Positions 4,561 to 59,551 of a stretch of 64,000 nucleotides of DNA are shown here, in pieces. Source of the DNA: Octopus sinensis (taxonomy: Eukaryota); contig NC_043015.1 in assembly GCF_006345805.1 (NCBI RefSeq), positions 51,770,001 to 51,834,000 of the forward strand, given 5' to 3'. Made by a program: the position numbers and the translations under genes. The notes beneath the pieces were generated by a model that ran no database searches, was not told the origin of the DNA, and saw only the letters and a program-made list of their open reading frames with translations. The stretch's first letter is position 1. Each line of letters starts with the position of its first letter.

Positions 4561-4609
<49 letters not shown>

Positions 4610-4612
<3 letters not shown>

Positions 4613-4834
4613 GAGGTTGTGTCCGAAACGTTTCTGGATTTGGTGAAAAGAAAATACAGGAGGCGGATCAGTTAATTATGATTTTATTCAACATATTAAC
4701 CTCTCAGATTCAGACACTTATTGCAGCCGTCCTTCAGTTTTTCTATATCCTGTAAAAGAATTGGCGAGTTTGGGCCTCCAACCAGGCCTTTCGCGATAAC
4801 CTCAAAGTCAGGGACGTCTCAGCACTCCCTCGTA
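4610..4834 (-). mobile_element. Mariner-derived MITE
   Basis: TIRs TACGAGGTTGTGTCCGAAACGT and ACGTCTCAGCACTCCCTCGTA with TA ends. Interior minus strand reads CNKCLNLRG*YVE*, like a mariner transposase C-terminus. Confidence 0.8.
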
Positions 4835-5830: not shown

Positions 5831-7070
5831 TACAAGCGTACTCATATGAAGTGCATTTCTTGGAAACATGTATGGATGTTTTATTTCTGCCAGTTAATAT
5901 TACTGTATTCCATAAAATGTCATTTAAACTTGTGTAGTAAAAATTTTGTCAGCTTTTCACAAACTCTTGTCAACATGTTTCGAAAAATACCAAATAACAA
6001 TAAAAAATAATATTAAAAAAAGAATATAAAATAATAATTCCAACGGACAGAAAACATGAAATATTTTTTGGTAAAAGTATTTTTACGTTGTTTTATTTAT
6101 TTATATAATTATCTATTGATTATTGTGAATTCTTCTTTATTGTTTTCATTTTTAATTTGTTTTTGTTCTAATGCACCTAATATTAATTCTAAAATGATTG
6201 TTGGAACTAATCTAAACGGTTAATTCTTTCTATCCCAAAGGGAGCAATTTGTCTTTTTCACAACACTTCTATAATGAAATGACGGAAGATTTTGTGACAT
6301 GATGTCGGAATAGTTTAAGTGTTGTCGATCTTGAAATGAAAGGAAAAGCCCTGAAAAAGAGACAAATTACCTGAAAATCTTTCAATAACTTTTGTTTATT
6401 TATTTATTGCTTTGCTTTGTTCTTGGCAAATATCTTCTTTTCTTTACCGCGCTCCGCGAGAAACGTCAAAGCTATTTAGCTGATTAGATTTAAAGTGTCT
6501 TACGTTCGCCTTGTCATTTGTCTCATCGCATAAAGCCAACGAAGAGATCTGGCACACGTGATTATATAACAACACATGATAGGTTCATTGCAATAGAGTG
6601 ATGTCGACAATGCTGCTGCCGTTATTGTTGTAGTTGTTGTTGTTGTTGCTGTTGGTTATGTTGTTGTTGTTGACGTCATCGATGTTCCCGTTTATCAATG
6701 TATTTGTCATTGCAATTCTAGTCACACTCTCTTTTCCCTCTCTCTCTCTTTCTCTCTCTCTTCCTCTTATTTGTTTTTCTCTTTCTATTCCTCTCTACAC
6801 TGCCAAGTGTAACTTTTGACTTAGATTTCACAAAACCGAATCAATCAGATGTACACGATAATATCATACCATGCAAAACGGAAAAATCAAACAGGAATAT
6901 CAAACAACAACAACAACAAAAACAACAACTCATGACAACAACAACAACAACAACAGCAACAACAACACAACAGCAATAAATACGTCACTTCAGTATGCCC
7001 AAACACACGAAAAGCGAAATGAACAAATATAAAGAAAAAGGAAAATATTACCAAATTTTTACACGTTTGT

Positions 7071-55336: not shown

Positions 55337-55914
55337 ATTAATTATTAAAAAATTGTATGGTATGCACCTGACAGTTCGCAGTAAAGCTCATTTATAGGCT
55401 TAGTGTTCGTTGGGGAATTGATTAATGAAAGATACGGAAGATGTATGACCCCCATCTAGAATCGATCCTTCGCGATTGGGATACTGAACATCTAGTCTAG
55501 TCGTATCTGTCGGTGTAGATGTGACTCAGGTGATTTCGAGAAGTATCTCGTTAACATAAACTCTGTTTCGCAAATTTTTTTCTTGTTCTTCGTATATATA
55601 AATAGCAAATAGATGTATGCAGCTTCATGCTTGTATAACATCTATAACAAATATCAGATACAAAAGGAAACCGATACACAATAAACTGAAAAAATATTGG
55701 ATATAATCTTTGGTAGATATGGATGTATAAGCGCCCACACATACATAGTCTGCTGCACGTACATGTGCTCGTACAAACGCATACACAAGCGCGCGCACAC
55801 ACACATATACACACATACTGCACACACTTGTGAACTGGTGTAATTTGCATGTGACTCACTCGACAAGAGTTTAATACTTAAACAGTGAAACCATATCAAT
55901 ATCCAGAATGTGTA

Positions 55915-56365
55915 AGACGGCGAGCTGGCAGAAATGTTAGCACGCCGGGCGAAATGCGTAGCCGTATTTCGTCTGCCGTTGCGTTCTGAGTTCAAATTCC
56001 GCCGTGGTCGACTTCGCCTTTCATCCTTTCGGGGTCGATTAAATAAGTACCAGTTACGCACTGGGGTCGATATAATCGACTTAATCTGTTTGTCTGTCCT
56101 TGTTTGTCCTCTCTGTATTTAGCCCCTTGTGGGTAGTAAAGAAATGGGTATTTCGTATGTGTTTACGTTCTGAGTTCAAATTCCGCCGAGATCGACTTTG
56201 CCTTTCATCCTTTCGGGGTCGATTAAATAAGTACCAGTTACGCACTGGGGTCGATATAATCGACTTAATCCGTTTGTCTGCCCTTGTTTGTCCCCCTTTA
56301 TGTTTAGCCCTTTGTGAGCAATAAAGAAATATAAAGAAAAAACATTAGCACGCCGGGCAAAATTC
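55915..56365 (+). mobile_element. SINE N composite (two tail-B units plus a head stub)
   Basis: Junctions at 56146/56147 and about 56335. Confidence 0.9.
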
Positions 56366-56423
56366 TTTTTTTAAGATCTCAATGAATTCGAAATGGTATT
56401 AAAAAGAAGTGCAATATACTGTC

Positions 56424-56755
56424 AGCGCATGGCTTAGTGATTAGAGCGTCGAGCTTACGATCATGAGTTTGTGAGTTCGATTCCCAGACCGGGCTGCGTG
56501 TTGTATTCTTGAGCAAAACACTTTATTTCACGTTGCTCCAGTTCATTCAGCTGTAGAAATGAATTGCGTCATCACTAGTGCCAAGCTGCATCGGCCCCTT
56601 TGCTTTTCCCTTCGATAAAATCGATGGCTTAGAGAGGTGAGGCTGGTATGCGTGGGCGTCTGCTGGTCTTCCATAAACAAACTTGACCGGACTTGTGTCT
56701 CGGAGGGGAACTTTGTAGGTGCAACCCATGGTCATTCATTAGCGAAAAGGGTCAC
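56424..56755 (+). mobile_element. tRNA-derived SINE group T, copy 3 (different tail)
   Basis: A box TGGCTTAGTG, B box GAGTTCGATTCC, then GTGTTGTATTCTTGAGCAAAACACTTTATTTCACGTTGCTCCAG. Confidence 0.85.
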
Positions 56756-56771
56756 TCCAATATACTGTATC

Positions 56772-56980
56772 AAATTTTGGCAAAAAGCCAGCAATTTTCA
56801 GAGGAGTGATAAGTTGATAACATCGAGCACAAAGCCCAACGGGCATTTATTTTATCGACTTCTACAGAGTAGAAGTCAAAGTGAACGCCAGTGGCGTTTG
56901 ATCTCAGAACGGAAAGAGCCGGAAGAAAGGTCGCTAAACATGTTTTCGACACCCTACAGATTCTGCCAGCTCGCCGCCTT
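56772..56980 (-). mobile_element. Degenerate SINE N
   Basis: TTTGATCTCAGAACG..TTCTGCCAGCTCGCCGCCTT. Confidence 0.7.
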
Positions 56981-57068
56981 TCTGTAATTTGTAATAATAT
57001 ATGAATATTTGTGCAGGATGCAGCAGAAGCAATTGCATCTTTTCCTAGACCATTGCTGTAACGTTATT

Positions 57069-58409
57069 AATATTAAACAGATGGAAGGCGACACGATTGC
57101 AGAATCGTTAGCACGCCGGGCAAAATGCTTAGAAGCGTTTCGTCTGCCGTTATATTCTCTGTTCAAATTTCGCCGAGGTCGACTTTGCCTTTCATCCTTT
57201 CGGGATCAATAAATTAAGTACCAGTTACGCACTGAGGTCGATGTAATCGACTTAACCCGGATACGGAAATTCTTGGCCTTGAGCTAAAATTTGAAACCAG
57301 TATTCTTTTCTACTCTAGGCACAAAGTCCGGAATATTTGGGGAGGGGCCACTCAATTAGATCGATCCCAGTACGCAACTAGTACTTAATTTATCGACCCC
57401 GAAAGGATGAAATGCAAAGTCGATCTTGGCCGTAAAGACGGACGAAATACTGCTAAGTATTTCGCCCGGAATTCTAACGTTTCTGCCAGCTCGCCGCCTT
57501 AATATGAAACCAATATTCGTTTCTACTCTTGGCACAAGTCCCGAAATTTTCGTGGGAGCGGCCAGTCGATTAGATCGACCCAAGTACGCAACTGGTACTT
57601 AATATATCGACCCCGAAATGATGAAATACAAAAGTCTATCTCGGCTGAAATTGAACTCAGAATGTAAAGACATAAAATACCTATTTCTTTACTAATCACA
57701 AGGGGCTACACACACAGAGGACAAACAAGATCAGACAATCGGATTACGTCGATTATATCGACCCCAGTGCGTAACTGGTACTTATTTAATCGACTCCGAA
57801 AGGTTGAAAGGCAAAGTTAATCTCAGGGGAATTTGAACTCAGAACGTAACGGCAGAAGAAATATGGCTACGCATATCGCCCGGCGTGCTAACGATTCTGT
57901 CAGTTCGTCGCCTTAATTGAAACCAATATTAAACTCATGGAATTCGACAAACTGGTTGAATGTTTAGCACGCTGGGGAAAATGCTTAATGGTATTTCGTC
58001 CTCGGCGAGCTGGCAGAAACGTTAGCACGTCGGGCGAAATGCGTAGCTGTATTTCGTCTGCCGTTACGTTGTGAGTTCAAATTCCGCCGAGGTCGACTTT
58101 GCCTTTCATCCTTTCGGGGTCGATAAATTAAGTACCAGTTACGTACTGGGGTCGATGTAATCGACTTAATACCTATGTCTGTCCTTGTTTGTCCCCTCTG
58201 TGTTTAGCTCCTTGTGGGTAATAAAGAAATAGGTATTTCGTCCTCGTTTACGTTCTGACTTCAAATTCGGCCGAGGTTAACTTTGCTTTTCATCCTTTCG
58301 GGGTTGATGAAATTAGTACCAGTCGAGTACTGGAGTTGATGCAATCGACATGCCCCTTACCCCGAAATCGCTGGCCTTGTTCCAAAATTTTAGACCAATA
58401 TTAAACAGA
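57069..58409. mobile_element. Nested cluster of six SINE N units on both strands
   Basis: Direct repeats AATATTAAACAGA (57069, 58397), TGAAACCA(A/G)TATT (57292, 57505, 57918) and GGTATTTCGTCCTCG (57990, 58232). Confidence 0.92.
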
Positions 58410-58467
58410 CGCTAATGGCATCTTCATGCATCTAATTTCTTTCTTTCTTGAATTTTTTTTTTTTTTT

Positions 58468-58716
58468 GAGGCGGTGAGTTAGAGGTTTTAGCGCGTCGAA
58501 CAAACTGCTTGACTGTTTTTCGTCCTGCTTTCCCCCCGTCTTTAAGTTCTGAGTTTAAATTATTCACCGAGGTCAAACTTGTCTTTCATCATTTCAGGGT
58601 CCATAAAATAATACCAGTCACGCAATGGGGCCGATTTAATCGAGCGATACCTCGCCACCCCTTAATAAAAAGAAGAAAGAAAATTGCTGACCTTCTCCCA
58701 GCATTTGAAACCAAAA
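58468..58716 (+). mobile_element. Degenerate SINE N
   Basis: GAGGCGGTGAGTT..GTTCTGAGTTTAAAT..CTTTCATCATTTCAGGGTC..ATTTGAAACCA. Confidence 0.75.
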
Positions 58717-59551
58717 TTTCATTGTTATCTTTTTTTATAGGTTATCATCTGGTCTGGACCTTTGAACATCGTGCGTATGCTTTTGAAATTTATCAAGAAC
58801 GGTGATGCTGAGTTTCTTGGCCACACCCTGTAGATGAGGGACATATTTCCTAATGTTTAATGTCTGTTTTTCTTCTTTCTTTCTTTTTTTTTTTTTTTTT
58901 GATATGTTAACATCCTAAGATTCGAAAATGAAAAGGAACAGAATTGTTAACTACGGAGCATTAACAATTTTCCTTTTGTCTGGAAATGTTCCCTTTTCAA
59001 ATCAGAACTTGCAGATATGAGACAGAGATTCGGCAATTCTTTGAATGAATTTCCTCAGTATCACCCTCTCATCTTAATTCAAGTCTGTAGAATTTTGTTC
59101 TTACATTTACAAACAATGTTCGATGATTCTATTATGATTCCATTATTCTTCTATCGCTCTAAGTAAAATCGAATTCAGATTTTTATTCTCATAATCACAA
59201 TCGGTAGACGTGTTATATTTTTTTTTGTTTCTTACTGGACGAATCATTGTTTTTGTTTTGTTTTGTTTTGTACTTTTTTTCTCTTGTTCTTGCTGTCAAT
59301 TCTGGTCGCACACTTACAAAGAATTTATTAAAACCATCAACCACATCATTGATATTATTTATGGTCTTATCGTTGTCAATAAAATATTGAAAGTAACTTG
59401 AGATTTAAGAACCAGCTCAATTAATGCTGTTTAACACACGCCGTATATCTTTAATGTGTGTTTTATTATTCTCCCAATATTTTATCATGATATTAGTCAA
59501 GTCCTTGATACGCACACACACACACACACACACACACAACACAAACACACA

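Follow-up and report, generated by a model that had tools for sequence, protein, structure and literature searches.

Structure of the nested locus

The window analysed here is a stretch of 64,000 nucleotides of the Octopus sinensis genome (NC_043015.1, positions 51,770,001 to 51,834,000 of the forward strand). A 227-bp SINE (58005-58231, plus strand, as are all parts of the nested locus) interrupts an older SINE in this window and is enclosed by two exact copies of the 15-mer GGTATTTCGTCCTCG (57990-58004 and 58232-58246), with zero bases extendable on either side. The old, decayed head of the host, which aligns to the head of the insert, runs up to the insertion point (57941-57989), and the remaining host follows the right copy of the duplication (TSD) with a shared core and then a different tail ending GACCAATATT (58247-58403). 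The insert carries the tail end AAAGAAATA and belongs to a subfamily with the internal arm TACCTAT, from whose column majority it diverges by 1.3%. The divergence of the host body is 16% (first 100 nt); the insert is young and the host old. Head and core are common to both elements and their tails differ; the host is therefore a member of a sister family, not of the insert's own family as an earlier note on this DNA had it. That note also described the insert as complete and well preserved; about 4 nt of the usual family start are missing. Likewise, the TSD had been given as 15 bp. The 15-mer is exact, but its final CG is at the same time the family sequence just 5' of the insert's first base, and the TSD is therefore 13-15 bp long, with a 2-nt overlap at the 5' end. 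Overlaps of this type between the TSD end and the family start are common among the two-head cases described below.

Two motifs of the insert were identified by eye, one A-box-like (58011-58021) and one B-box-like (GAGTTCAAATTCC, 58073-58085). The target site is placed between them. An internal arm, AATACCTAT (58168-58176), is predicted to pair with ATAGGTATT, and the TATTT inside the right TSD copy is a candidate weak Pol III terminator of the insert's RNA. The host may itself possess an outer TSD (left copy ACCAATATTAAAC, 57922-57934; right copy, 58394-58406), the left copy being weak as its letters are mostly tail-like. A decayed family copy lies directly downstream of the host (58520-58690), and three adjacent copies (57505-57934 and 58394-58406) meet at ACCAATATT / AATATTGGT, the host-type tail end, which may be a further target.

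When the genome (2.72 Gb) was searched for GGTATTTCGTCCTCG followed by N6+D, a filter that about three-quarters of places pass and that skips about a quarter of possible matches, two matches were found, both at the nested locus. The continuation CTCG followed none of 374 other GGTATTTCGTC starts in the fetched loci. The restriction of GGTATTTCGTCCTCG to this locus and of CTCG to this host therefore show that the duplication was copied from the host, and the reading of the earlier note, a SINE nested in a SINE with a host-copied TSD, stands. The old host head quoted there has one match in the window when up to 3 mismatches are allowed.

It is very improbable that the locus holds no insertion at all and arose as a two-head unit moving whole, by local duplication or through an assembly error. 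An empty allele was not seen, which is compatible with such an origin, the contigs at this place being dominated by other family copies: over 55600-59300 this was so in all four runs (270,000-700,000 records per run, with 15 joints listed out of some 5,990), making the presence or absence of the insert in relatives unreadable there. One contig of organism C spans the host tail (58328-58424, 6 differences) plus flank beyond. Against an origin without insertion, the 15-mer occurs only at the nested locus within the filter, and scoring 40 candidates brought up nothing near-identical to the 541-bp stretch (best 90% over 399 nt); the nested structure is thus not a recurrent unit, whereas recurrence would have spoken against the earlier note. 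Furthermore, insert and host are 16% apart, carry different tails and are joined by a private 15-bp repeat, unlike a duplication or a mis-join. A dimeric SINE moving as one unit was considered and rejected on the same uniqueness of the 15-mer within the filter and on the downstream bodies, which differ between loci by a median of 11%.

Insertion points across the genome

In loci chosen regardless of what follows the tail, 109 of 198 tail ends were found to run into family sequence. The junction starts at family position 49 (GGTATTT) in 88 of these and at position 16 (AGAAAC) in 13, with 8 elsewhere, 1 of which is inverted. Insertion points are accordingly not uniform, and the preferred site claimed in the earlier note was recovered, a second site being added to it. 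Genome-wide, exact junctions number 26,355 at position 49 and 2,539 at position 16, as compared with 107,769 exact tail ends under the 3-in-4 filter, or about 144,000 unfiltered; junctions at position 49 thus make up 18-24% of exact tail ends. GGTATTT itself is barely enriched in the window (19 observed vs 13.0 +/- 3.1 expected).

All 109 of these first junctions, from loci not chosen for two heads, are one-headed, and the form with two heads and a TSD was seen in none. Two-head, TSD-bearing cases, which the earlier note had suggested counting, do recur in different hosts but are rare: the pattern has 87 exact genome matches, about 66 places by row count. Loci were fetched for 50 of the 87 matches, together with three from the search for copies of the 541-bp stretch, and 33 junctions passed the filters. 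TSDs of 10-23 bp (median 14 bp) were identified in 26 of the 33, their first 11 bases matching partly by search design, and in 12 of the 26 a non-majority base is common to both copies. In 27 of the 33, divergence is higher in the downstream body than in the insert. Nesting at the position-49 base is therefore recurrent, with a different host each time. At the second site, a duplicated head start was found in none of the 24 junctions having a head in range. Head-only tandem runs were also observed, with units of 65-67 bp (head plus TSD) in 5 to 11 copies (G000:C3430:1366-2210, C1:195358953-195359257 and C7:15322782-15323091; L027-L031); these are likely to be expansions of the short repeat created by a two-head insertion.

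The six other tail-to-body junctions of the window (14107, 18860, 36397, 46912, 56147 and 57681) had been read as using the same GGTATTT site as the nested locus. All six exist, five with exact GGTATTT and one with GTTATTT, but they belong to one-head arrays and have neither a second head nor this kind of TSD upstream, so the likeness is one of site and not of structure. One array of this common form neighbours the nested locus on the minus strand (57512-57912) and consists of a head, a body with an insert-type tail and a headless body with another tail.

Target preference and its switch between subfamilies

The target depends on the subfamily. In the insert's subfamily (TACCTAT arm), GGT follows 10,290 of 12,540 ends (82%), and in the narrower group of the insert GGTA follows 304 of 443. 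In the GGGCAAT sister group, GGTA follows only 416 of 12,577 ends (3%); by-eye counts assign to this group 88 of 100 listed rows at the second site, AGAAWCGTTAGC, and 2 of 100 listed rows at GGTATTTCGTC. Monomers in non-SINE DNA were also analysed, and a TSD was identified for 26 of 52 (control, 3 of 300). The TSD starts with GGTA in 16 of 23 monomers and arrays of the TAAT-tail group, mostly in non-SINE DNA (three of the 23 sites were chosen for a GGTA flank and one lies inside a SINE head), and with TATA, AGAT or AGGA in 9 of 12 of the C-tail group. The preference for GGTAT(T) extends to unique DNA and is not special to SINE hosts. Upstream of the cut, the TAAT sites have a pyrimidine at -1 in 19 of 23, a purine at -2 in 18 and a purine at -3 in 20. 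This bias lies beyond the reach of RNA pairing, and a nuclease therefore contributes.

Such a contribution could in principle be the whole of it. The insertion would then be real and its site picked by a sequence-specific, Tx1-like LINE endonuclease cutting between RRY and GGTAT, with subfamily targets differing through different partner LINEs at different times. We regard this as the main rival and as unlikely, while giving it appreciable weight: the flanking bases are biased both before and after the cut, the median TSD of 14 bp falls in the L1 range of 13-15 and not in the RTE range of 10-12 (PMC4245944), SINEU-3 is directed into a different repeat next to Tx1 LINEs that share its target (PMC4494074), and the families listed for one octopus genome include active L1-Tx1 elements (PMC13282606). 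The upstream bias and the TSD of about 14 bp favour some nuclease role. However, the GGGCAAT group has targets (AGAAA, ATAT) that look like its own 3' end, and tails that differ in a single base go with different sites; a site set by endonuclease alone fits poorly with targets that switch between subfamilies. Nor does this explanation predict an arm complementary to letters past the element's end, and no LINE of this kind was found in a small sample of 50 reverse-transcriptase (RT) loci. A Tx1-mobilised SINE with one fixed family target, as in SINEU-3, was rejected in view of two sites used by different subfamilies.

The complementary arm is the internal arm of the insert. AATACCTAT is the exact complement of ATAGGTATT (58229-58237), which extends 6 nt beyond the element end. 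For the TACCTAT arm and the letters past the end, 5.7 of 7 positions are predicted to be paired at -7.2 kcal/mol, and for the TCCGTTT arm with a GGT flank the prediction is 2.4 paired at -2.4 kcal/mol; the insert's arm has by far the strongest predicted pairing of the arms compared. The fold of the whole RNA was no better than that of shuffled sequences (z -1.6, 14 of 200). Short slippage repeats of GAAATA were seen between the tail and GGTATTT at four loci (L160, L202, L008 and L036), as expected from re-priming at the RNA end.

Form and origin of one-head arrays

The arrays have one head and up to 8 bodies. Their period is 184 bp or 217 bp, and the units, which lack a head, have a fixed starting base. 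The 217-bp period from the AGAAAC site is exemplified by L339 and by matches at C1:31310350 and 31310567, and 184-bp and 217-bp units can mix in arrays. Neighbouring units have many more rare bases in common than shuffled controls do, and more of them at the 5' end. This 5' polarity was dropped as proof of re-insertion for internal units, since triples of units show that unequal exchange yields the same pattern.

For the one-head arrays, an origin mostly without re-insertion into a host is a substantial possibility that we would rate somewhat short of even. The routes would be the copying of read-through RNAs into multimers, switching between RNA templates at GGUAUUU, gene conversion with another locus as donor, or unequal exchange. 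An outer TSD surrounds 26 of 58 one-head multimers (control, 5 of 300), TATTT is leaky, 14 of 90 first pairs are at most 3% apart, and first units lack 5' polarity (362 of 2000 shuffles were as extreme). Rare bases of the middle unit were compared in 89 triples: at the 5' end they are shared more often with the downstream unit (21 vs 6, nt 1-50), at the 3' end more often with the upstream unit (14 vs 7, nt 101-184); being downstream-like 5' and upstream-like 3' is a mark of unequal exchange, which explains part of array formation. On the other hand, duplication does not readily produce the first junctions: 60 of 90 same-tail first pairs are more than 6% apart, different tails are joined in 35 of 133, and the downstream unit is the more diverged (58 vs 24). 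The decay of the head partly tracks that of the unit downstream of it (slope 0.33 +/- 0.14). For two very young units followed by an old body, scoring 40 candidates per body gave no near-identical source (best 92% and 89%). The set of 13 one-head cases with a young unit and an old body gave a marginal contrast in head age (p 0.06), and one of its members, L040, is actually two-headed with a short host head.

Gene conversion fits the points against an origin without re-insertion as well as re-insertion does. As far as the sequences of first junctions go, they favour formation in place, either through an insertion whose 5' end anneals to the host by homology or through gene conversion, and read-through multimers probably add to the mix.

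Class of the element and its partner LINE

With a length of about 232 bp, a dispersed high copy number (the 107,769 exact tail ends under the 3-in-4 filter) and TSDs of variable length (10-23 bp), the repeat has the properties of a SINE. ARAGORN identified no tRNA gene in the window, and Rfam gave no match at E<=10. The repeat presumably resembles octopus SINEs. The octopus SINEs OK, OR1 and OR2 (Ohshima & Okada 1994) are cited in PMC4824008 and PMC4758252. With regard to MetaSINEs, which are defined by a 66-bp Meta domain, comparison by eye with BivaMeta-SINE1 in the first of four parts of a supplementary file showed no likeness, and three core words were absent from the file. Membership of the T+ SINEs (B2, Dip, Ves) was rejected: AATAAA and TATTT are present at the insert end, but the listed ends have no poly(A) tail after them.

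The search for a partner LINE covered 50 of the 150 RT loci listed, from a total of 59,986 candidates, and gave none that shares any of the three tails; 12 tail ends whose bodies matched poorly likewise yielded none. At L309, two young copies of the insert's subfamily (4594-4759 and 5997-6163), 1.4 kb apart, adjoin a reverse-transcriptase frame. The best RT matches (L275-L304) lie on unplaced contigs and are many near-identical LINE copies with 3' ends unlike the chromosomal ones, several then having GGGTATTTG-like flanks; they may represent foreign DNA or a LINE family of very recent origin. A chromosomal LINE (L305-L308, L311, L322 and L323) has frames of up to 958 codons and ends ...GCACTGTACACA(ATT)n, with no tail in common with the insert-family SINE.

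Proposed mechanism

We consider it probable that the young SINE entered the sister-family copy by target-primed reverse transcription directed by the 3' end of its own RNA, in which an RNA that we infer to end in GGUAUU(U) primes on matching nicks. In copies followed by GGTATTT, Pol III would be partly stopped at TATTT, giving the RNA end GGUAUU(U). A LINE enzyme with a loose preference for cutting between RRY and NNTA would nick the DNA, and the RNA end would then pair with the target. As GGTATTT is located between the promoter boxes in every family head, old copies would be common and well-matched targets, and a new copy arriving at GGTATTT would acquire the same stop, by which the loop would be maintained. 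At the nested locus the 5' end would have been joined with a 2-nt overlap, giving two heads and a TSD, a rare outcome; the one-headed state of most junctions is likely to be due in part to cDNA annealing with the host's homologous sequence, of all steps the least secure. As for the locus itself, it is a true nested insertion and a rare, readily interpreted product of self-targeting, a habit that is very common and differs by subfamily.

In mammalian assays, TATTT has been described as a terminator that stops Pol III 42-50% of the time (PMC8466645), and pairing between 3' repeat and target has been proposed for RTE SINEs (PMC6007223). Two points run counter to the mechanism: the head's own TATTT at position 49 should stop some transcripts too, and the subfamilies may differ in age and partner.

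More tentatively, and with slightly less than even confidence, the element can be viewed as a self-targeting SINE whose terminator, priming sequence and target are one word, GGTATTT, present in its own head. New copies would enter old ones and usually join by homology, retrotransposition itself would give rise to tandem arrays with one head at tens of thousands of places, the insert's arm would pair with the hidden RNA end, and the sister subfamily would run the same loop at the second head site. Each part of this mechanism is known already; a published case in which the parts close into a loop on this scale was not found. No account of the self-targeting pattern was found among the open-access papers covered, and the words nested and dimer are absent from the portion of PMC13282606 covered.

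Relation to known systems and implications

The variation of target with subfamily is observed here, and the RNA end is what we infer when the repeat is set beside RNA-3'-end-guided elements of the AfroSINE type. Gilbert (2008) and Ichiyanagi & Okada (2008) reportedly treat RTE-related SINEs with 3' repeats matching the TSD start. In the AfroSINE, Au-like and Sauria RTE-related SINEs, the start of the target goes with the RNA 3' end (PMC6007223), as would be the case here; families within one genome differ in it, and a nuclease bias lies upstream, as is also seen here. The match there is one of 1-2 nt to a microsatellite tail (PMC6007223), whereas here it would cover 4-7 nt, lie beyond the visible element end and equal a word in the family's own head. 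SINEU-3 in Mariner-N4_AMi likewise possesses a fixed insertion point in an abundant repeat and sequential tandem copies with TSDs (PMC4494074). Its target is another element and is ascribed to Tx1 partners (PMC4494074); the target described here is the own family, depends on the subfamily and usually lacks a TSD.

The two outcomes at the 5' junction recall the annealing and direct joining described for LINEs, in which an exposed target overhang can anneal to cDNA (PMC4245944). That work concerned L1, ZfL2-1 and Nimb-2 in cell lines and at non-homologous sites (PMC4245944), and annealing to a fully homologous host to give headless units would be our extension of the pathway by analogy. A large tandem share and a TATTT terminator are found in the Dip, B2 and Ves multimers (PMC8466645) and SINE-derived satellites (PMC10702118). 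The former are described as full-length units (PMC8466645), in contrast to the headless units with a fixed start seen here, and the satellites of squamates are ascribed to duplication and unequal recombination (PMC10702118).

The presence of a SINE within a SINE is ordinary; what is unusual is that 18-24% of exact tail ends are joined to one base of another copy and that the target switches by subfamily. If the RNA pairing is true, the family would provide a large natural test of RNA end versus nuclease in the choice of insertion sites and a direct path from dispersed SINEs to tandem repeats. Repeat libraries would also break up a single family into numerous composites and assign wrong ages to chimeric copies. 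In a recent annotation of an octopus, 900 SINE families are given as recently active (PMC13282606), and our guess is that these listed families may reflect such composite splitting.
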